Part shown: piece by piece, positions 28,670 to 52,251 of the stretch
How positions within the stretch are numbered: position 1 is the stretch's first letter
Layout: each line of letters begins with the position of its first letter
Assembly: GCA_000004695.1 (NCBI GenBank)
Contig: CM000150.2
Span: forward strand, 4,512,001 to 4,576,000
Length of the DNA stretch: 64,000 bases
Source: Dictyostelium discoideum
Taxonomy: Eukaryota
Direction: 5' to 3'
The notes under the pieces: generated by a model
The model's input: only the letters and a program-made list of their open reading frames with translations
Database searches by the model: none
Told to the model about the DNA's origin: nothing
Program-made: the position numbers and the translations under genes

Positions 28670-30577
<1,908 letters not shown>

Positions 30578-30639
30578 ATGATATTTTTTTATTTATTTTA
30601 AATCGTTTTAATTATTTTTTAATTTTTATTTTTTTTTTT

Positions 30640-31788
30640 TCAAAGTAAAAATGGAATTAAAATTTTTCTTGATTTTGGATATTTATCACCAAATTCTTTT
30701 CTATATCTTCTATGTTTACCAACAGCCCAAATCCACATTTGAGCAGCACCCATTAATGCGAAAATCCATGAAGTTAAAGTTTGTGTGAGAATTGAGAACC
30801 CAATCCAAGATAAGATTTCAACGGTATAATTTGGACATGATACAAATTCAAATAATAAACCACGTGGAATCTTACGTTCTGTTGAACCTGCTGGACGAAG
30901 ATTTCTTAATTGAATATGACAAATGTAATTGAAAACTTCACCAATAATCCATAATCCTAAACCAAGGTAAACACGTTCAATTGGTGCTTCAGTGTAGAGT
31001 GGATGATTTACAAAGTATGATACCATTGCTGTACATCCCCAATAATATGAACAATTTTTAAAAAGATTAAAAATTGGCATTGTACCATGACTAAATCTAT
31101 GAACGAAAATTGTTTCATAAATTCTTTTAATATAATGAAGTGAATAACAAACCAATGCAACTCTATATAGATAAAAAAAATATTAAAAAAAATAAAAATA
31201 AAAAATAAAAAAAAAATGTATTAGTATTTGAGTGTGTGGGGTGAAAGAGAAGAGAACTTACTTTTGAGCAAATGATTTTGGTGAATCAGTACCATAAATT
31301 AAATTTGATAAAAAGTAAAAGATTGGATAAACAAATAATGGACCTGCATATTCACAAATGAAAACTAATGACCATGAAATTTGTGGACCTAAATCTTTAA
31401 AGTAAAGGGTTGAATCTGCTCCGACATGTTTAGAGACTAAATCACTATCTTTACCTAATGCCTCAAATGCATTTGGTAATTTTGAGGTCTTACTTGGTAC
31501 TGCTAATCTAATTCTTTCTGTTCCAAGTCTAGCTATATATATAAAAAAAAAAATTAAAAAATAAAAAATAAAAATATAAAAAAATAAAAAAATAAAAATA
31601 AATAAAAAATGGTGATTATATATTAATATAAAAGTAGAAATAAATTTTTAATAATAATAATAATAATAAGAAAACTTACTCTTTGAGGAAATTTGCTTTT
31701 TTAATTCACCAACTGTTGTTGACGAAGAAGTTGAAAATGAACCAACTTCTTTTTTTGATCTTTGTGAAACAACTTTAATATCAACCAT
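30640..31788 (-). CDS. Very-long-chain trans-2-enoyl-CoA reductase (TECR/Tsc13, steroid-5-alpha-reductase family); exons 31788..31680, 31532..31262 and 31162..30640, 300 aa
   Basis: Exon 1 is a ubiquitin-like N-terminus (MVDIKVVSQRSKKEVGSF..). Exon 2 reads LYFKDLGPQISWSLVFICEYAGPLFVYPIFYF, matching human TECR [27 protein letters not shown]. Exon 3 reads LHYIKRIYETIFVHRFSHGTMP..FKNCSYYWG..HRRYRKEFGDKYPKSRKILIPFLL. The donors are GTAAGT at 31679 and 31261, the acceptors are ...tatatAG, and the phases are consistent (109+271+523 nt). Confidence 0.85.
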
Positions 31789-31992
31789 TTTTTATTTTAT
31801 TAGTTGTTTTTAAAAAAAAAAAAAAAAAAATAAAAAAAAATTTAAAAAGGCTCCATGAAAAAATTTAAAAAAATTAAAAAAAAAATCTTAAAAAAAAAAA
31901 AAAAAAAAATAAAAAAAATAAAAATGATCAACTAAAAAATTTATTCTATAAATTACTAAAATAGTACAAACGAAACCCTATAAAATTAAAAT

Positions 31993-32037
<45 letters not shown>

Positions 32038-32599
32038 TTTTAAATAGTTGATCCTAATTTACTAATCTTTGAAAAAATAAAAATTATATTCTAATTTTTT
32101 TTTTTTTATTTTTAAACAAAATAATAAATTTAAATTTGTTTGATCCCTTTTTTTTTTTGAATTGGATTTAAATATATTGTAAGTAAATTTGTTTGATCCC
32201 AATTTATTAATCTTTTAAAAAAAAAAAAAAAAAAAAAAAGATGAAAAATAAAAAAAAAATAATTGTAAATAAGTGAACCGTTTTGGGAAAATTAAAATTA
32301 AAAAAATAAAAAGTTAAAAAAAAAAAAAAAAAAATTTTAATTTAAATGGTAATCCCTTATTGCCCTACAAAAAAGGGAAAAAAAAAAAATTCAGGAATTG
32401 TTTTTTTTATTGTTCTTAAGCAAATCATAACCTTGTCAATATATATAATTAATGAGTCAAACCCGCTGCTTCATGAATAAATAAATTTTTTTTTTTTTTA
32501 TGAATTTGTGGTGAAAATTTTTGAAGTTTTTTCTTATTTTTTATTTATTTTTTTTAATTTTTTTTTTTTTTTTTTTTTTCAATTTAAATTAAAAAAGAT

Positions 32600-32638
<39 letters not shown>

Positions 32639-32907
32639 AATTTCATTTACAATTTGTTTATAATTACAAATAACTATTTTTATATTTTTATATTTATTAT
32701 TTTTTTTAATATATTTTTTTATTTTCATTTTTTTGGATAAACTTACATAAAAAGATAAAAAGAAAAAAATGTCTGTAAGTATATAAATTTTTTTATTTAT
32801 TTTATTTTTTTATTTTTTTTTTTTTATTTTTTACAAATATTAAATAAAAATAAATATTTAAATGTATACTAACAAAAATAAAAAAATAAATAAAATTAAA
32901 GAAACCA

Positions 32908-35900
32908 ATGGATGTAGAACAAGAACCAAAAATTGATGATGCTTTATATAGCAGACAACTTTATGCATTATCTCATGAAACAATGAAAAAAATTACATCA
33001 ACTTCAGTTTTAGTTGTAGGTTTACAAGGTCTTGGTATTGAAATTGTTAAAGATTTAAGTTTAGCAGGTGTTAAATCTGTTACATTGTATGATAAAGAAT
33101 TAGTTGAAATTAAAGATTTGTCTTCTCAAGTAAGTTTTATATTTATTATTTTTACTTTCACGCACAAAATTTTTTTTTTTTTACTATGGTGATGTTCATT
33201 TAAAAAAAAAAAAAAAAAAAAAAAAAATTTTTTTTTTTAAAAATTTGGAAAAAAAATAGAAAAATAATAATAGTAATTAATTAATTTCCCTCTTTATTTC
33301 TTTTTATTTTTATTTTAAATTTTTAGTTTTATTTTTCACCAGAACAAGTTGGTAAAGTTGGTAGAGCAGATGCATGTTTCCAAAAAGTTGTAGATTTAAA
33401 TAATTATGTTAGAATTGATGTACATAATGGAGAATTAAGTGATGAATTCTTAAAGAAATTCAATGTTGTAGTATTAGCCAATCAACCATTAGCATTACAA
33501 CTCAAAGTGAATGAATTTTGTCATGCAAATAAAATTCATTTCATTAGTGTTGAAACCAGAGGTGTTTTTGGTCAATTATTCAATGATTTTGGTGAACAAT
33601 TTACAATCACCGATACAAATGGTGAGAATCCAAATGCTTATATGATCAGTTCAATCAGTCAAGATAAAGAAGGTATTGTAACCGTTGTTGAAGAACAAAA
33701 ATTACAACTTTTAGATGGTGATCTTGTTACATTCAAAGAAGTCAATGGTATGTCAGCTCTTAATGATCTTCCACCACAAAAAATTAAAACCATCTCTCCA
33801 TTAACTTTTTCAATTGGTGATACTACAAATCTTCCACCATATACTTCTGGTGGTTATGTTACTGAAGTTAAACAACCAAAAGTTGTTGATTTTGTAAGTT
33901 TTTTTATTTATTTTATGATATATAGATAGATAAATATAAATATATATATATATATATATATTAATTTTTTATTTATTTTTATTTTTTTTAAAAAAGAAAC
34001 CATTAAAAAATATTTTAGAAAGTGGTGAAAATATTTTTATTACAGATGATTTTAAATTTACACAACCAACCAATTTATTAGCAGGTTTCCAAGCAATTCA
34101 TAAATTTGCAGAGAAAAATAAACATATGCCAAGACCACATAATAAGGAAGATGCAAACGCTGTAATTGAGATTGCCAAAGGATTATTAAAGAAACCAGAT
34201 GATGAACTTGATGAAAAGATGATCACTCAATTATCATTTGGAGCACAAGGTGATATTGTACCAATGCAAGCAATTCTTGGTGGTATTACAGCTCAAGAGG
34301 TTTTGAAAGCATGTTCAGGTAAATTCACACCAATTCACCAATTGGCATTCTTTGATAGTGTCGAATGTTTACCAGAGGATTTAGAAACTCTCCCAGAAGA
34401 GGAGTTTCAACCAATTGGTTCACGTTACGATGGTCAAATCATTACCTTTGGTAAGACACTTCAAAATAAAATTGAAAATTTGAATTACTTTTTAGTTGGT
34501 GCCGGTGCTATCGGTTGTGAAATGTTAAAGAATTTCGCAATGATGGGTTTAGGTGCTGGTCCAAAGGGTTTGGTACATGTCACCGATATGGATACAATTG
34601 AAAAATCAAATCTCAATCGTCAATTCCTTTTCCGTTCATCCGATATTCAACAATTGAAATCTCAAACCGCTGCAAACGCTGTCAGAGTTATGAATCCAGA
34701 TCTCAATGTAAAGGCATACAGTCTTCGTGTTGGACCAGATACTGAAAGTCATTACAATGAAGAGTTTTTCAATTCATTGGATGGTGTTTGTAATGCATTG
34801 GATAATGTTGAAGCACGTTTATATATGGATTCTCAATGTGTTTACTATGGTAAACCATTATTAGAATCTGGTACATTGGGTACCAAAGGTAACACTCAAG
34901 TCGTTGTACCACATCTCACCGAATCCTATAGTTCAAGTCGTGATCCACCAGAGAAAGGCATTCCAGTTTGTACCCTTCACAATTTCCCAAATGCCATTGA
35001 ACATACCATTCAATGGGCTCGTGATACTTTTGAAGGTCTCTTTAAGAACAATGCAGACAATGTAAACTCTTACTTAACCAATCCAGCTTACGTTCAATCA
35101 TTGAAAACTCAAAATCCATTTGTTCGTTTAGAAACTCTTGCCTCAATTAAAGCTTCACTTATGGATCGTCCATTGGATTTCAATCAATGTATCGCTTGGG
35201 CTCGTCTAAAATTCGAAGAATACTTTAACAACAATATCGAACAATTACTTTACAATTTCCCAAAGGATATGGTCACCACAACTGGTACACCATTTTGGAG
35301 TGGTCCAAAACGTGCTCCAACCCCATTGAAATTCGATGTTGAAAATCCATTACATTTGGAATTCATTGTTGCCGCTGCAAATTTACGTGCCTTCAATTAT
35401 GGTATCAAAGCTGAAACAAACATTGAAGTCATCCAAAAACAAGCTGCCAATGTTATTGTTCCAGATTTCACTCCAAAGAAGGTTAAGATTCAAACCTCTG
35501 AAAATGAACCAGCTCCATCTTCAAACACTCAACAAGCTGGTGGTGATGCTGAAGATGATCAATGTGATACCATTTTATCACAACTTCCACAACCAAGTGA
35601 AATGGCTGGTTACAAAATTAACTCTATTCAATTTGAAAAGGATGATGATACCAATCATCATATCGATTTCATTACCGCTACCTCAAATTTAAGAGCTACC
35701 AACTATGCAATCAGTCCAGCTGATAAACATAAGACCAAAGGTATCGCCGGTAAAATCATTCCAGCTTTAGTTACCACTACTGCCGTAGTTGCTGGTTTCG
35801 TTTGTATCGAATTGATTAAAGTTATTCAAAATAAAGCTTTGGAGAAATATAAGAGCACCTTTATGAATTTAGGTATCCCATTCTTTGGTTTCGTTGAACC

Positions 35901-36249
35901 AATTGCCGCCCCAAAGAACAAAATTCGTGAAGGCTGGACTTGGACACTTTGGGATCGTTTCGATGTTGATGGTGATATCACTCTCAAGGAGTTTTTAGAT
36001 CTCTTTGAAAAGAAACATGGTTTGGATATTTCAATGCTCTCTTGTAAAGTTACACTTTTATATGCTCTCTTCACTGATAAGAAAACTAAAGAGGAAAGAT
36101 TAAAGATGAAAATCTCACAACTCTATGAAACCCTCTCAAAGAAACCATTACCAAAAGATAAGAAATATTTATTACTTGAAATTTGTTGCAATGATACTGA
36201 AACTGGTGATGATGTTGATGTACCAAGTGTCCGTTATAAGTATAATTAA
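32908..36249 (+). CDS. uba1: Ubiquitin-activating enzyme E1 (UBA1); exons 32908..33129, 33327..33893 and 33997..36249, about 1013 aa
   Basis: The sequence aligns end-to-end with human UBA1: DDALYSRQLYALSHETMKK, FLVGAGAIGCEMLKNFAMMGLG, TDMDTIEKSNLNRQFLFR, KPLLESGTLGTKGN, the catalytic-Cys region PVCTLHNFPNAIEHTIQWAR, PFWSGPKRAPTPL, and the C-terminus LEICCNDTETGDDVDVPSVRYKYN. Both donors are GTAAGT (33130, 33894) and the acceptors are tttttAG (33326) and aaaaAG (33996). Confidence 0.9.
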
Positions 36250-36486
36250 AAAAAAAAAAAAAAAAAAAAAGATTTATTCTTTATCTATACACATACAAAT
36301 ATTTTATTTTATAATAAAAAAAAAAAAAATTTTAAAAAAAAAACATATATATATTTATAGTTTTATTATTAACTTTTTCATAATTTTAAATCAAACACAT
36401 TTCAATTGGATTAATAAATAAATTTAATTATATTTATAAATTTGTAATTTCTTTGTTTTTTTAATTTTTTTTGTTGGTTGTGTAGA

Positions 36487-36570
<84 letters not shown>

Positions 36571-37115
36571 TCCAAACCTATTTTTAAATTATTCAATCAC
36601 ATCATAGTATACTTTTAAATACGAATTATTGAAAAAGAGCATGGAATTTCATAATTTTCCAATTTTAATTTTGGATATTGATTAGTTATTTTATTAAATA
36701 ATCCAATATAATATTTTAATAAATTTAAATTTTTTAAGTGAAACGAAATTAAATATTTTTTATTACATAATAATTGAGGAAATTCTTAACAAAGGAAATC
36801 CAACATTTCAATTGACCTTGATATTAATAATGGGAAATGATATGAGCGGTTAATTGTAGTGGGAATATTTTTAAAATAATCATTATTATCATTTCCATTT
36901 TCACCTTTTAATTTATTAATAAAATGTTTAAATAATTTAACACTATCGAAACCAACTAAACAAAAAAATAAAAACCAAATATTTAATTTCTTATTTTTAT
37001 TAATTTCTTTATTTTTAATCCCATCAATTGCTAAATCAATAAAATTAATTTGTTTTTTTAAATCATTTTTACAATTTGAAAATAATTAATGATTTTTAAT
37101 TTCTGTTTTATTTTT

Positions 37116-37147
37116 AGAATCTTCATACATAATGGTATGAAGATTCT
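37116..37147. repeat. Perfect 13-bp inverted repeat (agaatcttcatac ... gtatgaagattct) with a 6-nt loop
   Basis: Direct reading at 37116..37128 and 37135..37147. It lies about 500 bp beyond the 3' end of the TRE3-like element. Confidence 0.8.
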
Positions 37148-37638
37148 AAAAATGGTTTATAAGATATATTATATCTGATTTATTTGTTGATAGCATTGTT
37201 AATTTTAAAAAAAGATCTTTATTTAATGAAATAAAGTATCCCAAATTTCATAGGTTTTCACAGTTGGTTCTATTAATTTAATTAATTGTTCAATTACTTG
37301 TATTGAATCACTTTCAATTGCTTTATTTAAAAATCTTTGGTTAAATATTCATGCTTGTAAAAAAGAAAAGTAATAATGGAAAAAAATAAGAATAAAGACC
37401 AATGTTCAATTTGTAAATATTAATAAACTTTTTTTTATTTTTATTTTTTTTTTAAATATATAATTTTATTTTATTTTTTTATTTTATTTTTTAAAAAAAA
37501 AAAAATATTTAAAGAAAAATAAATAAAAAAATATAAAAATTAATTTAAACTTTACTAAAATATGGAAAATTCGATTAGAATCGAATTATAAAATAATATA
37601 TTTAAAAAATACAATTATAAACCGAAAAAAGATAGGTT

Positions 37639-37655
37639 TTAGTGAGGGCACTTTT
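37639..37655. repeat. Target-site duplication (3' side, left copy) of the TRE3-like insertion
   Basis: ttagtgagggcactttt, identical to 39609..39625. Confidence 0.7.
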
Positions 37656-39608
37656 TTTTTTTTTTTTTTTTTTAATATTGGATTAACAAGATTGATATAT
37701 GTCCATCTGTGTTAATACGAGTTTTATTTAATATTTATTTAAAGGCTTATCATTTAAGCTGAAGGGTTATTTTAATCATATGAATTGATCAAAAGATATA
37801 ATATTTGGGAGAGATGATTCTGTAATACAATAGTAATTAGCTGTTGTTTTTCTTAGCTTGATCGTTGAAGTGAGAAGGATCTTAGGATCTTTGAAGTTAT
37901 TATGGTCTTTTGCTGATAAGTTTTTCAGATCTTTTGCTTTTTTGATGTATTCTAGAGTGGCCAATTTGTGCCATTTCTTTAGAAGGGAGCTGTATGATAG
38001 TGATTCATCTGTTAAAGGATCTTCACTGTATATTTGATTGCAAATCCAAATCCAAATGTTGTGGAGGATAAGGGCCATTAGGTTTCTATATGCGAATGAT
38101 CTGGTTAGATCATAGTCTATTGCTTTATAGTTCCATTCAAAGTATTCTTTGTGGAATCTGTGGTTGGCGTAATCTGCATTCACTTCTTGATCTTTTTTGG
38201 CTGTCGGTGATAATTTTGGAGTTATTCTATTAATGAAATTGTTATTTTGCCTAATTCTTGTATGGTGCCAGTTTTTACCTTTGCCTGTGGTAATATAGAT
38301 GAAATTTTTGAGTTTATTTATTTTTATGAATTGTTTTGTTTTCTTGCATGAGAAGAACAGGTGACCGTATGGGTCTTTGCTCATATCTTCTTTGCAGAGT
38401 GGGCATTGTTTGTTGTGAAGGTAGTTTATTGGAAGGCATCTGGCATGGAATCTAAACATTGTGTCTCTTGTTTTAGGGTCTTTTATCTTCAGTATGTTGT
38501 TGAAGAGTTGATTATAGCTGTAGCCTCTTAAGTTTAGAGATGATTGGAATTCCGTTTTAGGGATGGTTGGATTTTGGTCTTGAATTGTGGTATACCATTC
38601 TGCCAGTGAAAGTGGTTGTCCATTTTCGTTTTTTATGGATGTGAGATTATTGTTGAAGATTGCTTTTTTTATTCTTATTTTGTTCCATTCGTCTAAGTTT
38701 TCTTTTAGGTATCTGGATGTGAATTTGTTTTTTTGGATCTGATATTCCCAGCTTTTGTGATGAGATGAGTTTGTTTGTTTGGTTTCTAGTGCTAGGATGA
38801 ACTGGTTTATGATCCAAAGTTTCTGCGCCAGTTGTCTCAATTCTATATTCCAAATGTTCCAGCCCCCTACTTTTAGTGGGTATCTTGCTCTTTTGGTTCT
38901 CATTAAATTAATAACTTGAAATCCACTAGCATTTTTGTTGTTTGGTGCCGATAAAAACCATTCGACTAATTTATTGATTTGGTTTAATTCCTCTTCATTA
39001 AAATTCTCTACATATGAATAGTAGGTTAATTTAGAGAGTGCGAATGCTTTGAGGATGTTGGTTTTGGTTTTGATTGTTGAGTCAGTGGTTTTCCATAGTA
39101 CTAAGGATGATCTTATTGTGTTTAATATTTCTGGCATTTTTCTTGTTATCCCTTTGCCTGTGAAGAAGTATCCCAAGTATCTTTCTGGATTTGTAGATAT
39201 TGGAATTCTTTGGTTGGTATTGTCTGGGTTGCCTATAAGAATTGATGAAGATTTGTCGATGTTTAGTTTTGAGGAAGTGGCTTTGCAAAATGAATTGAAG
39301 TGTTGTAGTACTAATTCAAGTTGTTGAGAGTCTGGGACCATTGAAGCCGAGTCGTCTGCAAAGCTTTGGAATTTCTCTCTGTGGTTGCTGTTGTTTAGAG
39401 GAAGGCCAGTAATTAGGTCATCTTGTAAAATTTTTCTAGCTAAAGCCTCTATTACAAGGACGAACAGGGTGGGTGATAGTGGATCTCCTTGTTTAACTCC
39501 TCTTTTGATCTCAAAGGGTATAGTAGTTCTACCATTAATTTCAATTCTTGCATCAGATTTGGTGAGTAGATTCATTATCAGGTTGATTATATTGGTTGGA
39601 ATGTTGTC
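37656..39608 (-). mobile_element. 5'-truncated TRE3-like (tRNA-gene-targeted, non-LTR/LINE) retrotransposon, about 1.95 kb, inserted about 106 bp downstream of tRNA-Ile in the same orientation
   Basis: The element is bounded by a 17-bp direct repeat, ttagtgagggcactttt, at 37639..37655 and 39609..39625. Its 3' end is a poly(A) tail of about 20 nt on the minus strand (poly-T on plus, 37656-37675). It contains a reverse-transcriptase ORF on the minus strand (37776..39575). The 5' end abuts the downstream flank of the tRNA past the exB box, which is the placement expected of the Dictyostelium TRE3 family. Confidence 0.7.
37776..39575 (-). CDS. Reverse transcriptase (ORF2 fragment) of the TRE3-like non-LTR retrotransposon
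   Basis: The RT motifs are GVKQGDPLSPTLFVLVIEAL and the FADD motif-C variant (QSFADDSASMV). Further on is a Cys/His cluster CPLCKEDMSKDPYGHLFFSC. The ORF is open to the 5' truncation point, so there is no native start. Confidence 0.7.
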   Translation of the reverse strand: MNLLTKSDARIEINGRTTIPFEIKRGVKQGDPLSPTLFVLVIEALARKILQDDLITGLPLNNSNHREKFQSFADDSASMVPDSQQLELVLQHFNSFCKATSSKLNIDKSSSILIGNPDNTNQRIPISTNPERYLGYFFTGKGITRKMPEILNTIRSSLVLWKTTDSTIKTKTNILKAFALSKLTYYSYVENFNEEELNQINKLVEWFLSAPNNKNASGFQVINLMRTKRARYPLKVGGWNIWNIELRQLAQKLWIINQFILALETKQTNSSHHKSWEYQIQKNKFTSRYLKENLDEWNKIRIKKAIFNNNLTSIKNENGQPLSLAEWYTTIQDQNPTIPKTEFQSSLNLRGYSYNQLFNNILKIKDPKTRDTMFRFHARCLPINYLHNKQCPLCKEDMSKDPYGHLFFSCKKTKQFIKINKLKNFIYITTGKGKNWHHTRIRQNNNFINRITPKLSPTAKKDQEVNADYANHRFHKEYFEWNYKAIDYDLTRSFAYRNLMALILHNIWIWICNQIYSEDPLTDESLSYSSLLKKWHKLATLEYIKKAKDLKNLSAKDHNNFKDPKILLTSTIKLRKTTANYYCITESSLPNIISFDQFI

Positions 39609-39625
39609 TTAGTGAGGGCACTTTT
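39609..39625. repeat. Target-site duplication (5' side, right copy) of the TRE3-like insertion
   Basis: ttagtgagggcactttt, identical to 37639..37655. Confidence 0.7.
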
Positions 39626-39667
39626 AAAGTTGGTTATAATTCTAATTCATTCTGATTCCTCTTCTGG

Positions 39668-39680
39668 GAATTGAACCCTT
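39668..39680 (-). promoter_or_regulatory. External B-box (exB), a duplicated Pol III B-box about 35 bp downstream of tRNA-Ile copy 1
   Basis: The minus strand reads GGGTTCAATTCCC, matching the B-box consensus GGTTCGANTCC. The same element with conserved flanks occurs after copy 2 at 50369..50381. This is a known Dictyostelium tRNA-gene feature. Confidence 0.6.
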
Positions 39681-39714
39681 AATCTAGTTTTCAAATGCCT
39701 TAAAAAGGATCTGT

Positions 39715-39787
39715 GCTCGATGCAGGGATCGAACCTGCGACCGTGGCGTTATTAGCACCACGCTCTGCCGACTGAGCTAATCGAGCA
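39715..39787 (-). tRNA. tRNA-Ile (anticodon AAU), 73 nt
   Basis: The minus-strand sequence folds as a cloverleaf. The acceptor is GCTCGAT/ATCGAGC, the D-arm GCTC-AGTCGGCA-GAGC, the anticodon stem-loop TGGTG-CTAATAA-CGCCA (anticodon AAT), the variable loop CGGTC, and the T-arm GCAGG-TTCGATC-CCTGC, with an A discriminator. The internal A-box TAGCTCAGTCGG and B-box GGTTCGATCC are present. Confidence 0.9.
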
Positions 39788-39837
39788 TCCGTGAAAAAAA
39801 AAATTAAAATTGGCCAAAAAATGGGTAATTTTTTTAG

Positions 39838-40534
39838 GGGAAGATGAGACTTCAGAACATATATTCTTCAACTGCAAAGCCCACATCAAAAACACACAAG
39901 AAATCTTCAACTACACCTTAACCAAGTGTGGACACACCACTCACACCTGGAATTTTAAGATTTTAAAACATCCACAAATTGCACTAATAGCCAATTTAAT
40001 AGCTATTATATTCGAAAAAATCTGGCACAAAAGAAACAAACTCATCCACGATGAAATAGAAATAATAATTCATAGACCAAAAGTCATACGTGAACTAATT
40101 AAAACACAAAGAGCTGCATGGGAGAGGACACAAGCGGTTATAAACAAAACATTAAGAATCAAATCAAAGCAACGGCAAGAAGAACAAAATAAATTAGACT
40201 CATTAATCTCGCTAAAGCTATTACAATTTAGCAGACAACGGAACTCACATCTTCACGCAATAGCACTTCCCAAACATCAATCATGAAGCTGATGATAAAA
40301 TAAAAAAAGATTTAGAAAAAAATTTGGACAAAAAAGATGTTTTAATCAAAAGTAATAATACAATTCGAAATTCGAAACAAAAAAAAAAAAAAAAAATAAA
40401 GTAAACTGACCCCTCTTTTAGAGACCCTGTAAAAAAAAAAAAAAAAAAAACTAAAAATAAAATGAGATCTGGCATCTCAAGGAGAAGCAACTAATAATTG
40501 CGTTATCCAATTCAAAAAAAAAAAAGGTAATTTT
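39838..40534 (+). mobile_element. 5'-truncated TRE5-like non-LTR retrotransposon fragment, about 0.7 kb, 50 bp upstream of tRNA-Ile copy 1, head-to-head with the tRNA
   Basis: It is flanked by a 13-bp direct repeat, ggtaattttttta, at 39825..39837 and 40535..40547. It ends in an A12 tail (40523..40534). It carries the C-terminal end of an ORF2-like reading frame (..FLGEDETSEHIFFNCKAHIKN.., a Cys/His knuckle typical of LINE ORF2 termini, ending at 40286), followed by a 3' UTR. The position about 50 bp upstream of a tRNA gene is diagnostic of the TRE5 (DRE) family. Confidence 0.6.
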
Positions 40535-40794
40535 TTTATGTTGGATTCATGAAATGACCAATTATTTTCGATATTGTTAGTCATTTGGTTTGCAGACTTA
40601 TTAAAAGAACTAACAAAATAAGTTGGTGAAAATGTGTCCTGATGATTAGAGTTCACTACTCGAGAGTTGTAACCAAAAGAAAATAAAATAAAACCCCATC
40701 TATAATTAAATGTGTTTTAGCTTTTATCTTTTGATTGATTGATTTTAAAATAACAACCTCACTTTTACAAGTTTGTTGGGTTTTATTTTAAAAT

Positions 40795-40832
<38 letters not shown>

Positions 40833-41025
40833 CTATTCTTTATGAATGGTCAATAACTTTGCTCTTTCCCATTCAGTATCTCTTGTATTGGATAGTTTAT
40901 AGATTTCTAAATCCTAAGTGATAAACTTTTCCCCTATACTTTATTTTACTTTTCATATTGTGTATGATATAAATGATTTATAATTCCTATTTTTAAAAAA
41001 AAAAAAAATTAAAAAAATTATATAT

Positions 41026-41064
<39 letters not shown>

Positions 41065-41078
41065 TTTTCTATAAATAG

Positions 41079-41462
41079 CTAGATACTTACATTACCATCA
41101 ATATCGTTAGAAGCATAACAGCTACTACTCCAATGAGAACCACGACCACATCTAAAACAACAATTACTTTCGTTGTAACTTGATTTATGGACTTGTTCAT
41201 GAATATTTTTTTTGAGTACAACTAAATTACTATATCTATTATCAGATGTATCTTTATTAATATGGTGGACCACTTCATTAGCGTATAACTCTCTGCCAAC
41301 TTTTCTTTGACCAACTGTACGATGAGTAAATTTCCAACTTTTACTATTTTCATCATAGTATTTACGATAACCACTTGGATTAATATAAATTTTTAAATCT
41401 CTTGGTCGTTGTTGTTGTTTTTGTCTTTGCTCTTTTTTATTGTTGTAATTGTTTTTTAACAT
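41079..41462 (-). CDS. Intronless 127-aa protein: an HNH_3-type (phage homing-endonuclease-like) nuclease domain fused to a C-terminal CCHC zinc knuckle
   Basis: The real ATG is at 41462..41460 and the stop at 41079. The HNH core is PSGYRKYYDENSKSWKFTHRTVGQRKVGRELYANEVVHHINKDTSDNRYSNLVVLKKNIHEQVHK. This matches the HNH_3 pattern HRxV ... V-H-H-I-(N/D)-x-D-x-x-D-N-R-x-x-N-L ... H-x-x-x-H. It is followed by CFRCGRGSHWSSSC, a C-x2-C-x4-H-x4-C retroviral-type zinc knuckle. The N-terminus is basic (KKEQRQKQQQRPR). Confidence 0.6.
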   Translation of the reverse strand: MLKNNYNNKKEQRQKQQQRPRDLKIYINPSGYRKYYDENSKSWKFTHRTVGQRKVGRELYANEVVHHINKDTSDNRYSNLVVLKKNIHEQVHKSSYNESNCCFRCGRGSHWSSSCYASNDIDGNVSI

Positions 41463-42018
41463 ATTGTTGTAAAATTATTTTTTTTTTTTTTAAGATTTTA
41501 TTTTTTAATGAACGAATTTTTTGGTGTTTGTTGAATATTTATATAAATGAATAAAATTTTTTTTTTTTTTGATTTTATTTATTTTTTTTTTTTTTGATTT
41601 TATTTATTTTTTTTTTTTTAAAAAAGAATTTATTTTTATTTTATTTGAATTATACCTTTTTTAAGAATTTTAACAGAATTTTTGTTTTTTTATTTAAAAT
41701 GGCCAAAAATATTATTTCTATTTAATTTTTTTTTTTCTTGGAATATATTTTTAAAAAAAGAATTGATCTGTCTAAATCTAAAAGGATTGAGTTCCAAAAA
41801 ATAAAAACTTGATTTATATATAAAAAAAGAATCACATAATCAAAAATAAAATATATTGATTTAAAAGAATAACCAAAATAAAATTTAAAATTTTTAAGAA
41901 AAACTTTGTCTTTTTTTTTTTTTTTTTTTTAATATTATTTATTTATTTTTTAATATATACAAAATTCTTTTTTTTGTTTTTTTTTTTTTTTTATTATTAT
42001 TATTACTTAATCTTTTTT

Positions 42019-44699
<2,681 letters not shown>

Positions 44700-45436
44700 T
44701 TTTTTATTTTTTTATTTTTTTTTTTTTTTTATTTATACAAGAATATATATACAAAATATTAAAATTTATTGGAAGGTAGTTTACACAACTCAATAAATAA
44801 TAATTTAATAAATAAATAATAATTTAATAAATAAATAAATAAAAATGGTAAGATAAAAAAAAAAAAAAAAATGGAAAAAATTTTCTTTTTATTGATAAAA
44901 AAAAAATTTAGAAAAAAAAAAATAAAAAAAAAAAAAAACAAAAAAATAAAAAAAATTAAAAAAATAAAAAATGTTTTTTTCAAATTAACTGAATGCAGGT
45001 TGCAAAAAAATTTTATAAACCCAATGGCTAAGCCATTTTTAATTTTTTTTTTCTTTTTTTTTTTTTTTCTTTTTTTTTTTTTTCCAAACCGTCCTCTAAA
45101 CGGCAAAAAATTGTCAAATTTACCCCTTTAAAAATTCTAAAAAATAAAAATTATAATTTTTTTTTTTTACAACGCAGCAAAAAATTGTTTGTGCATTTTC
45201 AAAGATTTCAAATATTTAACACCAAAATTGTAATGATCTCATCTAAAAAAAAAAAAAAAAAAGATTATAATAAAAATAATAATGAAAAATTAATATTTTG
45301 ACAATAATAATGAAAATAATAATAGATAATCATAATAGTAATAAAAATGAATTACTTTTTTGAGATGAAAAAAACAATTTTTTTTGATATATTTTTACAC
45401 TCATAGGGGAAAAAAAATTCTAAATTTAGAATAAAA

Positions 45437-45488
<52 letters not shown>

Positions 45489-45825
45489 TATTTTTATTTT
45501 TTTTTTTTATTTTTTTATATTTGTTACACAAATGACAAATTTAAAAATAAAAAAAAAATGATAATAAAAAAAATAATAATAAAAAATGTATAAATTCTAA
45601 ATGTGGATAAAATATATTAAAAAAAAAAATTAAAAAAAAAAAAAAATAAAATACCCACTTAATGGTGGGAAAGTGTGTTAAATATTTATTTATTTTCATA
45701 ACAGTTTTATGATATGCATATGAATGTTTATTATCCATTTATTATTTTTTTTTATCTTTTTTTTAATTTTACTTTTTTTAATTTTTTTTTTTAATTTTTT
45801 TTAAAAGAATGGCAGTTCCAATAAA

Positions 45826-45861
45826 TTCGCCATCAACAAAAATAATTTTTTTGATGGCGAA
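45826..45861. repeat. 36-bp palindrome: 11-bp perfect inverted arms (ttcgccatcaa / ttgatggcgaa) around a 14-nt A/T spacer
   Basis: Reading ttcgccatcaa-caaaaataattttt-ttgatggcgaa directly. It is the only GC-containing symmetric element in a 1-kb poly-A/T spacer between abpC and the next gene. Confidence 0.8.
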
Positions 45862-45865
45862 TGAG

Positions 45866-45919
<54 letters not shown>

Positions 45920-46023
45920 TTTTTTATAAGAAATTAAAAACTTTTTTTAAGATTTTAGAATTAAATTTAATTTTTTTTGATAATATAAATAAACTTAATA
46001 CTTTGTTTTTTTTTTTAATTTTT

Positions 46024-46067
<44 letters not shown>

Positions 46068-46117
46068 TTGGGTAACCACTTGAAATAGTTCAATTATTTT
46101 TTTTGTTTTTTTTTTTT

Positions 46118-46163
<46 letters not shown>

Positions 46164-46219
46164 CCAAATTCACTTGAATAATATTAATAATATAATTGTA
46201 CAGATTTTAACAAATAGTA

Positions 46220-46250
<31 letters not shown>

Positions 46251-46266
46251 CACAAAAAAAAAAGAA

Positions 46267-49757
<3,491 letters not shown>

Positions 49758-50368
49758 ATTGATAATAGTTATTTTAATTATTTTAATACAATTTTCAATA
49801 CATTATATAAAAAAAAATAAATAAATCCTTAATTGGTTTTGTTTTGTTTTGTAATAATCCTTATTTTTTTTATTTATTTTTATACATATATTTTTATTTT
49901 TTTTTTTTAAAAGAATCTAGTTTTCCTCTAATCCTTCTAATCATGGATATGGCGCAGGTAAATGAGCTCTTGCAATTCCCAATTCACCAATAAATTACCC
50001 AAAAAAAAAAAAAATTTCATTTTTTTTAACATTGATTAATTAGTATCCATTAAAGGAAATAGTTTTAAATTTTTATTTTTTTTAAATGAAAAGAAATTAT
50101 TCCTTTTTCAATTTGAGTTTTCAAATGAGGAGTTTTAAAATATAGTTATTATTTTTATTCAGTTTTTTAATATGTTAGTATTTAAAATTAATTAACTAAA
50201 TAAGTCAAATAATAAGATGAATTGGTCAAAGGATTCTTATAAGATTTGGCTTTTATAAAATACTCAGAGCCAACCACACAATTCAAAAAAAATCAATGGA
50301 GACTTTTCCAATAACAAAACATATACCCACTTAAAATGGTAGTTTGGTTAATTTCGATTTAGCTATAT

Positions 50369-50381
50369 GGGAATTGAACCC
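50369..50381 (-). promoter_or_regulatory. External B-box (exB) about 34 bp downstream of tRNA-Ile copy 2
   Basis: The minus strand reads GGGTTCAATTCCC, in the same context as copy 1 (tcctttttaa...aagggttcaattccca). Confidence 0.6.
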
Positions 50382-50414
50382 TTAATATCGTTTCCTTTAA
50401 TTAAAAAGGATGTG

Positions 50415-50487
50415 TGCTCGATGCAGGGATCGAACCTGCGACCGTGGCGTTATTAGCACCACGCTCTGCCGACTGAGCTAATCGAGC
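50415..50487 (-). tRNA. tRNA-Ile (anticodon AAU), second copy, 73 nt, identical to 39715..39787
   Basis: The 73 nt are identical to copy 1 (tgctcgatgcagggatcgaacctgcgaccgtggcgttattagcaccacgctctgccgactgagctaatcgagc on the plus strand). No retroelement is seen at -50 or +100 of this copy. Confidence 0.9.
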
Positions 50488-50740
50488 ATCCGTTGAAAAA
50501 AAAATTATTTTATCCAAAAAAGTGCGAACTATTTTTTACAACAAAAGGAAAAAATAAGCAGGAAAAACTCAACCGTAACTATTCTGGTGAATTTATTAAA
50601 ATTTAATAAATTGAAGAAATTCCAGCAACAAGAATATTGCAAATTTATATTTTCAAAAAATCGATACGATAAATTTTAAATTTTATTTTTTTTTTTTTTT
50701 TTAAGTGTAAATTTAGTTAATTGAGGTTTTTTTTTTTTTT

Positions 50741-52251
50741 TTAAACACCATAACATTTATCGAATTCAGAAGAAGTGATACCAAAGATTTGACAAATCCA
50801 TTTAGTTTGACAAGCTTGATCACAAGATTCTTTAATTGGTGAACTACTAAGATTTTCGAAATAACTATTAAACATTGTTGAATTAGTTTTCATTTGATTG
50901 GCAACTTTTGTCCAAGAGGTAGGTGAAAGATCATCCATATTATAGAGTTCTTTAGCACTATAAGTCAATTGGAAATTTAAGGCACCAGTTTCATTTGCTT
51001 CAGTAATGTTTGCATGATATTGATAGTAGTTTACAATTTGATTAGTTGAATAATCAAATTGATAAATACGATAACCAGGTTCATGATTTTGATAGGTTGT
51101 TAATGATGGAACGATATAATTCATACCGGTTGGAATTGTATGAGTTGCAACATCGGAGAATACTGAAAATTGATCGTAATGAGTATGGCCATACAATTGA
51201 CCAATGATAACATCAGAGAATTGACCTACCACTTGTTCATACATTGCACACCAACCATCGGTTGAAGCACTTTTAACAGTGCATGGAATATGACCAATGA
51301 TTAAAACCTTTTCACCATTGGATTGAGCTTGTTCCAATGTATTGATCATCCAATCCGATTGATTATTTGGGCCTTTTAAATAGGTTGGGAGGAGATTATA
51401 GAAATTGATCATATCATTCTCCAAAGTATTCAATGACATAACACGAAGACCTGGCTTAATCAACGATGTATAATAACCACGCTCTTTAACCAACTCCAAA
51501 GCATCGGCATCTAACCATGGTGCCCAATAGGTGTAAATCGAGTCCAATAACCATTGTGAATTTGGTAAAACGTATTGATCGGCTGGGTAAGCTTCATGAT
51601 TACCCAACGATGGTAAAACTGGTGTATTTGGGAAAGTCTTTTGAATGACCTGTGCCAATGTTGCGGTGGCCAACTCTTGTTGAGCTTGTGATTGTTCCCA
51701 TACATTGTGTGGTGGATTATCACCTGTCCAAACTATGAAATCCAATTGATCAGTCAATGTTGCCAAATGTTGGAAAATCAATTCAACAGTACTAAATGGG
51801 ATATCGCAAAGGTAATGACCTATTGGACCTGCTGAACCTACACCATCTCTACAACATAATGGTCTACCACAATTTGGATTTGAACCAACTTTATAATCTG
51901 GATCGAAATGTACATCAGAAATTTGTAAAATATAACCAATACTATCATTACCTTTAAATTTTTTTACCAATGGTTCTTGATTTGATAAATCTTTATATTG
52001 TGGTTTCTTATTAACTTTCATTGTTGGTTTATTAAATGATTCTTGTCTATATTCATTATCAAATGAATTTGAAATTGATGATGATTCTGATGATCCTGTT
52101 GCTGAACAAATCTTAAAATATCCACATAATTGTGATGGTGTAAAATCTGATTGAATAAGTACATCAACTATAATTGGTACATAATTATTTAAAATACCTG
52201 TACACTATATTTAAATATTAAATAATTATTATTATTATTAGTATTTTTTAA

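Follow-up and report, generated by a model that had tools for sequence, protein, structure and literature searches.

A small gene in a 64,000-nucleotide stretch of the Dictyostelium discoideum genome (GenBank assembly GCA_000004695.1, contig CM000150.2, positions 4,512,001 to 4,576,000 of the forward strand; hereafter the window) encodes an HNH_3 nuclease domain followed by one retroviral-type CCHC zinc knuckle. We interpret this gene, DDB_G0270276, as a domesticated I-HmuI-like nuclease that was exchanged with giant viruses and in which the knuckle would act as the nucleic-acid-binding module, a reading to which we assign a probability of roughly 0.6. The open reading frame (ORF) listing places an ATG-initiated frame of 127 codons at 41079..41462 on the minus strand, with the sequence quoted in a preliminary description of this DNA made from its letters alone. 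The spliced product of 126 amino acids (aa) is identical to the D. discoideum AX4 protein XP_646668.1 (UniProt Q55C13), labeled 'HNH nuclease domain-containing protein'. DDB_G0270276 is thus already in databases, with its function uncharacterized, and a literature search found no paper mentioning it.

Both domains are recognized by curated models. Pfam assigns residues 44-89 to HNH_3 (PF13392; E=2.9e-13, 49.7 bits versus a curated cutoff of 24.8) and residues 99-124 to zf-CCHC_5, the betaretroviral-type knuckle (E=2.6e-7, 30.7 bits versus a cutoff of 27). HNH endonuclease families of PHROGs match the protein with a best E-value of 2e-13, and the knuckle aligns to nucleocapsid knuckles of known structure in the Protein Data Bank (PDB) from Mason-Pfizer monkey virus (MPMV), mouse mammary tumor virus (MMTV), and human immunodeficiency virus (HIV). 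The two assignments, both made in the preliminary description from sequence alone, are far beyond chance. They are also the only domains that Pfam detects in the protein, which carries no NUMOD, helix-turn-helix (HTH), or AP2 module.

The AlphaFold2 model (mean predicted local distance difference test score [pLDDT] of 83.3, predicted template modeling score of 0.69) reaches pLDDT values of 90-96 in the core and falls below 50 for residues 1-17. It comprises a three-stranded sheet, a helix, and a beta-beta-alpha unit, fitting an I-HmuI-type fold with its preceding beta-sheet. In the profile alignment, V-H66-H67 lies opposite V-D74-H75 of I-HmuI, and the invariant H88 corresponds to I-HmuI N96, one residue past the end of the printed alignment. 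In the 1u3e structure of I-HmuI, D74, H75, and N96 serve as metal ligands and general base. H67 is accordingly proposed as the general base, with H66 and H88 as metal ligands, H92 possibly as a third, and N75 and N79 in structural roles. Sequence, predicted fold, and the putative active-site residues together place the protein in HNH_3. In the knuckle, the zinc ligand positions are C102, C105, H110, and C115, accompanied by the aromatic residues F103 and W111. In retroviral nucleocapsids such as that of HIV-1, the aromatics that follow the first cysteine and the histidine stack on bases. The conserved ligands together with F103 and W111 suggest that the knuckle binds zinc and single-stranded nucleic acid.

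The pairing recurs in a family of compact proteins. Searched exhaustively with HMMER, 1.84 billion representatives yielded 5,643 matches at E<=1e-3, most of them HNH-only or knuckle-only; among the best 150 of these 5,643, ~35 are 100-220 aa long and cover the two domains in this order. Thirteen positions are invariant or nearly so (G31, Y32, H47, H66, H67, N75, N79, H88, C102, C105, G106, H110, and C115), with H66, H67, N75, N79, H88, C102, G106, H110, and C115 invariant in the alignments and C105 invariant in alignment A2 and nearly so in A5. HNH_3 is matched by all 27 sampled members, zf-CCHC_5 by 25, and zf-CCHC by 13. Four members (P0009, P0013, P0014, and P0031) possess a second knuckle beyond a low-complexity linker, an argument for treating the knuckle as a binding module and as more than a structural zinc site.

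The preliminary description had regarded the pairing as unusual, and the databases agree. NCBIfam and PADLOC hold no specific model for an HNH_3-plus-knuckle family, Pfam has no architecture description for it, and the literature search found no paper describing HNH-plus-CCHC proteins. The IMG/VR scan for two-domain relatives gave HNH-only or knuckle-only matches, and BFVD gave HNH-only fold matches with no HNH-plus-knuckle protein. A scan of JGI metagenomes added two full-length relatives only, one of them previously found. The HNH_3-plus-knuckle mini-protein family is undescribed so far.

Eukaryotic members occur in Dictyostelium, in an Arcella intermedia transcript, in Synstelium polycarpum, and in Willaertia magna, where the gene is interrupted by introns and lies among cellular genes. 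A further eukaryotic contig (L078) carries a member near COX17 and similar genes. A neighbor-joining tree groups all eukaryotic and virus-like sequences in a single clade (100% bootstrap support), apart from the remaining, mostly bacterial sequences. The bacterial group is more diverse, has a GC content of 54-69%, and includes MBL8633388.1 and three Myxococcales metagenome-assembled genomes, the latter identified by a GTDB genome scan with the bacterial-subset alignment A3. On L005-L010, the surroundings of the bacterial members look like defense islands. Neighboring genes encode two products that PADLOC matches, namely a type IIG MmeI-like restriction-modification enzyme and a DrmD-like PLD-SNF2 helicase (the latter alongside a HATPase_c_3 partner), as well as an AAA_5 ATPase, an integrase, DDE transposases, and a CHAT protease. 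A bacterial member itself gives only weak, HNH-motif-only ZorE matches. One 118-aa bacterial variant is present on 49 contigs from many samples.

The nearest relatives outside Dictyostelia, P0010 and P0011, share 55-57% identity with the window protein and reside on contigs (L019 and L075) of 35-41% GC and 85-87% coding density that bear tandem ORFan paralogues. The octamer AAAATTGA is found within 60 nt upstream of 19 of their 30 genes, including both HNH genes, with counts of 13 versus 2.1 expected and 9 versus 1.4 expected that none of 200 shuffles equaled. AAAATTGA is the conserved Mimiviridae early promoter and is listed as diagnostic of the family (PMC3542560, PMC6163669). Frequent upstream AAAATTGA and dense intronless ORFs, the features used for Mimiviridae in PMC6163669, are both found around P0010 and P0011, and they speak to these contigs rather than to the window gene; AAAATTGA is absent upstream of the Dictyostelium HNH gene. 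Promoter motif, gene density, and ORFan content thus offer a strong but indirect case that L019 and L075 are mimivirus-like giant-virus contigs. No neighbor gene on either contig has a significant Pfam match. Searches with neighbor proteins for the identity of the carriers returned nothing named from two IMG/VR scans, and the last large search returned two unnamed metagenomic proteins only, homologues of a 604-aa Thr/Ser-rich ORF. The tandem ORFan paralogues (L019 1..7212; L075 1..15475) are ~200 aa long and end in F-D-V-x-I-x-C; a RING-like ORF accompanies them.

In Dictyostelium, the gene is probably spliced. The preliminary description considered it intronless, which is inaccurate in detail: a GTAAGT consensus donor immediately follows codon 124, and the gene probably has two exons, the second a terminal micro-exon (Table 1). 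An equivalent intron of 73-112 nt is present in all five D. discoideum-complex genomes (the window and L001-L004), followed in each by an 'x-Leu-stop' exon (EL, EL, EL, KL, and GL); in D. citrinum, the intron at this position is apparently GC-AG. The family consensus at the C-terminus is G-N-x-L, also in intron-free relatives, and the micro-exon restores it. By its conservation and the C-termini of relatives, the micro-exon appears real. The annotated C-termini of orthologues vary among assemblies because gene predictors treat the 3' intron inconsistently. The microsatellite inside the intron spans 41025..41068; the window and L001 differ in how many repeats it has and in its interruptions.

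The comparison of orthologous loci proposed in the preliminary description reveals a fixed position. In five of five genomes, namely the window and those of the other D. discoideum lineage (L001), D. cf. discoideum, D. citrinum, and D. firmibasis, the HNH gene is directly downstream of filamin; in L001-L004, the gene directly upstream of it encodes CH and Filamin domains. Within this handful of genomes, no empty allele was seen at the site. An orthologue also exists in D. dimigraforme. The D. purpureum orthologue, DICPUDRAFT_39985, is at an unrelated locus and has a different, internal spliceosomal intron of 78 nt. A search for local synteny with D. purpureum gave none, the gene itself being the sole match between the two loci. 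The D. purpureum copy (L018 4055..9046) has a PfkB fragment of 169 aa on one side and a full PfkB gene of 351 aa on the other.

Pairwise ratios of nonsynonymous to synonymous substitution rates (dN/dS) between species are 0.12-0.42, with bootstrap confidence intervals (CIs) that exclude 1, and those of the core are 0.2-0.36. The N-terminal tail evolves at 0.6-1.0 versus other species, which is nearly neutral, and at 0.15 versus the other D. discoideum lineage. None of the eight dictyostelid sequences examined has a disrupted ORF, and AX4 retains every catalytic and zinc-binding residue. These ratios indicate long-term maintenance of the gene under purifying selection between species. The GC content at third codon positions, which the preliminary description had wished to see compared with the surroundings, is 0.17, a host-like composition. 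We call the nuclease domesticated because of this purifying selection, the fixed synteny, the introns, and the host-like composition; a domesticated nuclease was one of the origins offered in the preliminary description, and these data support it.

In the proposed mechanism, residues ~25-95 would form an I-HmuI-type HNH_3 catalytic domain and residues 99-124 one CCHC knuckle, which would substitute for the NUMOD, HTH, or AP2 DNA-binding modules of classical HNH_3 homing endonucleases. The protein may be a monomeric, metal-dependent nicking or cutting enzyme of low intrinsic sequence specificity, tethered through F103 and W111, which would stack on exposed bases of DNA or RNA that is single-stranded or structured. 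We infer such a monomeric, low-specificity, knuckle-guided nuclease because the active site aligns, the aromatics are conserved, and the second knuckles suggest a binding module. The gene would have reached amoeba genomes by exchange with giant viruses, in which such HNH genes are mobile. The host would then have retained it for some purpose of its own, plausibly the cutting of foreign or viral nucleic acid or the processing of replication or repair intermediates. An exchange between a mimivirus-like virus and an amoeba, then retention by the host, is the most likely history; an older link to bacterial mobile or defense islands is likely.

Four known systems come closest to the protein. With I-HmuI, the intron-encoded nicking and homing endonuclease of Bacillus phage SPO1 (HNH_3; PDB 1u3e), it shares the aligned catalytic core. 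I-HmuI, however, has 174 aa and derives its specificity from C-terminal helical/HTH modules, whereas the window protein has a single CCHC knuckle instead, and its predicted metal ligands are His/His rather than Asp/Asn. The window gene is also chromosomal, spliced, and eukaryotic and lies outside any intron. Its knuckle has the C-x2-C-x4-H-x4-C spacing of retroviral nucleocapsid knuckles (the second knuckle of MPMV and MMTV, and HIV-1 NCp7), including the aromatics that follow the first Cys and the His and the betaretroviral trailing D-x2-G-N. Unlike those of retroviruses, the knuckles of this family are single (sometimes double) and fused to a nuclease, without gag context or an attached retroelement, and they occur in bacterial members too. 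Free-standing HNH proteins of phages and giant viruses (PHROGs; the Chlorella-virus HNH_3 group of the His-Me finger classification) have the same catalytic domain, as the PHROG and BFVD fold matches attest, and the genes of close relatives stand behind a mimivirus-type early promoter. In contrast to these, the window gene is vertically inherited in its host, and its knuckle layout was not found in IMG/VR or BFVD. HNH-AP2 endonucleases are a known case of an HNH_3 mobile nuclease that came into a eukaryotic nuclear genome and stayed there (PMC5714182). AP2/ERF proteins lost the HNH domain and kept the DNA-binding module, whereas the window gene keeps the HNH active site and has a knuckle, not AP2, as its partner.

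Several observations weigh against a domesticated nuclease of giant-virus provenance. No hallmark giant-virus gene (MCP, PolB, A32, or VLTF3) is present in the 7-15 kb of readable flank around P0010 and P0011, which holds ORFans only, and the assignment of these contigs is indirect, as noted above. The neighbor-joining tree is without support inside the eukaryote/virus clade, and the transfer may have run from virus to amoeba or from amoeba to virus. Of the horizontal origins raised in the preliminary description, giant virus or phage, a giant-virus link gains support from the closest relatives on AAAATTGA-rich contigs. The window protein matches no PADLOC model at E<=1e-3, and the literature search found no biochemical, genetic, or expression data on DDB_G0270276. 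Its knuckle might chiefly be a zinc site with a structural role. Position 72 is Lys in >90% of family members, yet codon 72 (41247..41249) encodes Thr in AX4 and ACTFIT, Ile in ACTFIW, and Lys in ACTFIR. Between the two D. discoideum lineages, the core has a dN/dS of ~1.08, from few changes, with a whole-gene 95% CI of 0.16-2.32. Because Lys72 is replaced and the core ratio is near 1, constraint may be relaxing or weaker within D. discoideum. The two different replacements at this conserved codon occur inside one species.

Three rival explanations were weighed, besides a more novel reading. That reading, although unlikely, makes the HNH-knuckle mini-proteins compact effector nucleases that move among bacterial defense islands, mimivirus-like viruses, and their amoebal hosts, the Dictyostelium copy being a cell-autonomous weapon against viral or other foreign nucleic acid, single-stranded or replicating, and the family a small, undescribed cross-domain immune module. 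Among the rivals, a doubtful one is a decaying relic, that is, an acquired viral or mobile nuclease gene that is now functionless in AX4 and too recent to have been lost. The replacement of near-invariant Lys72, the within-species core ratio with its wide whole-gene interval, the literature search without expression evidence, and the varying predicted C-termini all lean this way. Against decay stand the intact ORFs with their catalytic and zinc residues, the between-species ratios with CIs below 1, the micro-exon that has kept the conserved terminal Leu in five genomes despite changes in intron length, and the transcription of the Arcella homologue.

About as improbable is a still-selfish, free-standing homing endonuclease gene that cuts a specific site and copies itself at no benefit to the host. 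HNH_3 is the I-HmuI homing-endonuclease family (PMC5714182), the nearest relatives sit in giant-virus-like contigs among ORFan paralogue arrays, where such genes are typically mobile, the D. purpureum and D. discoideum loci are unrelated, and the distribution across amoebae is patchy. The gene nevertheless lacks the marks of such an element: it is intergenic and sits inside no intron, intein, or conserved target gene; the window has a single copy of it, and each genome a single annotated protein cluster; its position is unchanged among the D. discoideum-complex genomes looked up, with no empty site seen; and its protein has none of the extended DNA-recognition modules to which homing enzymes owe their site specificity. 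It has, moreover, acquired spliceosomal introns and a fully host-like composition, and it remains under purifying selection long after fixation, a stage at which decay would be expected of a homing endonuclease gene. The uncharacterized selfish element suggested in the preliminary description finds no support as an active multi-copy element. Also improbable is reuse of the HNH fold in a non-catalytic nucleic-acid binder or regulator, as when AP2 factors arose from HNH-AP2 endonucleases, with the knuckle mainly a structural zinc site stabilizing a tiny domain; it is opposed by the general-base His and metal-ligand positions invariant in eukaryotic, viral, and bacterial members, which would be unexpected had catalysis been lost, by the extra knuckles past long linkers in four members, which point to an independent binding module, and by the conserved aromatics at positions equivalent to nucleocapsid base-stacking residues.

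If the domesticated-nuclease model is true, the protein would be among the smallest complete nuclease designs, an I-HmuI-type core of ~70 aa plus a 14-residue knuckle, and thereby a tractable subject for enzymology and a possible engineering scaffold. In this family, genes have been exchanged among myxobacteria, giant viruses, and no fewer than three amoeba lineages belonging to two eukaryotic supergroups, and one member is a viral-type nuclease apparently kept under selection in a social amoeba. Because Dictyostelium is genetically tractable, the host role of a domesticated viral HNH nuclease can be tested directly. For annotation, the gene model is now fixed with its conserved 9-nt terminal exon, and the gene is separated from the adjoining tRNA-targeted retrotransposons.

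Table 1. Coordinates of the HNH-knuckle gene, its protein regions, and neighboring features in the window
Feature	Position	Strand	Basis
DDB_G0270276 exon 1, codons 1-124 (Met to Asn124)	41091..41462	-	ORF listing; identity to XP_646668.1/Q55C13
Probable 104-nt phase-0 spliceosomal intron (GTAAGT...AG), holds (ATTT)n microsatellite	40987..41090	-	
Probable terminal micro-exon, 9 nt, GAA TTA TAA (Glu-Leu-stop)	40978..40986	-	
Basic low-complexity N-terminal tail, aa 1-24, predicted disordered	41391..41462	-	pLDDT and dN/dS
I-HmuI-like HNH_3 (beta-beta-alpha-metal) nuclease domain, aa 25-95	41178..41390	-	
Retroviral-type CCHC zinc knuckle and conserved tail, aa 99-124	41091..41168	-	Pfam zf-CCHC_5; PDB nucleocapsid matches; conserved ligands
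Filamin/gelation factor (abpC) main exon, conserved upstream neighbor, synteny anchor	42019..44418	-	
tRNA-Ile(AAT), neighbor outside the gene	39713..39786	-	ARAGORN; also in strain L001
Non-LTR (long terminal repeat) retroelement insertion, AX4-lineage-specific, adjoins the tRNA; RVT_1 ORF 37776..39575	37006..39622	-	
Second AX4-lineage-specific insertion, other side of the tRNA; ORF 39810..40286	39804..40583	+	

The surroundings of the gene are as the preliminary description had drawn them, although the connection it made between them and the gene is not supported. Two identical tRNA-Ile(AAT) genes (39713..39786 and 50414..50487) are 10,701 bp apart, the nearer one 1,293 bp from the ORF end, and retroelement pieces flank that tRNA on both sides. 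One piece contains the RVT_1 ORF; the other contains an ORF with no Pfam match, assigned as retroelement ORF2 C-terminus-like by an HxFFxC motif only. Both insertions are missing from D. discoideum lineage L001, which has the tRNA and the HNH gene, and they are therefore recent, lineage-specific, and tRNA-targeted. We regard the position of the HNH gene next to a retroelement-occupied tRNA as coincidence, because L001 has gene and tRNA without the insertions and the D. purpureum gene is at an unrelated locus. A fragment of a multi-copy retrotransposon gag/ORF1, the possibility that the preliminary description had set against its own proposal, was ruled out: the gene itself is the single tblastn match in the 64-kb window, it is syntenic across species, L001 has it without the insertions, and each genome holds one protein cluster.

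L001 (GCA_054859385.1), although labeled D. discoideum, is only ~91-95% identical to the window over 20 kb (window 30000..52000), in genes and spacers. This divergence, far above the within-species expectation, suggests a cryptic lineage. At 5-8%, it spans the whole 20 kb, and balancing selection or unusual polymorphism at the HNH gene was thereby ruled out. L001 also has both tRNA-Ile genes, ~11 kb apart; the pair, with a PATROL1-like gene, filamin, and the HNH gene between its two members, is therefore older than the split of these lineages. In the window, the two tRNA-Ile genes share ~130-170 bp of flanking similarity (39673..39804 and 50366..50609).

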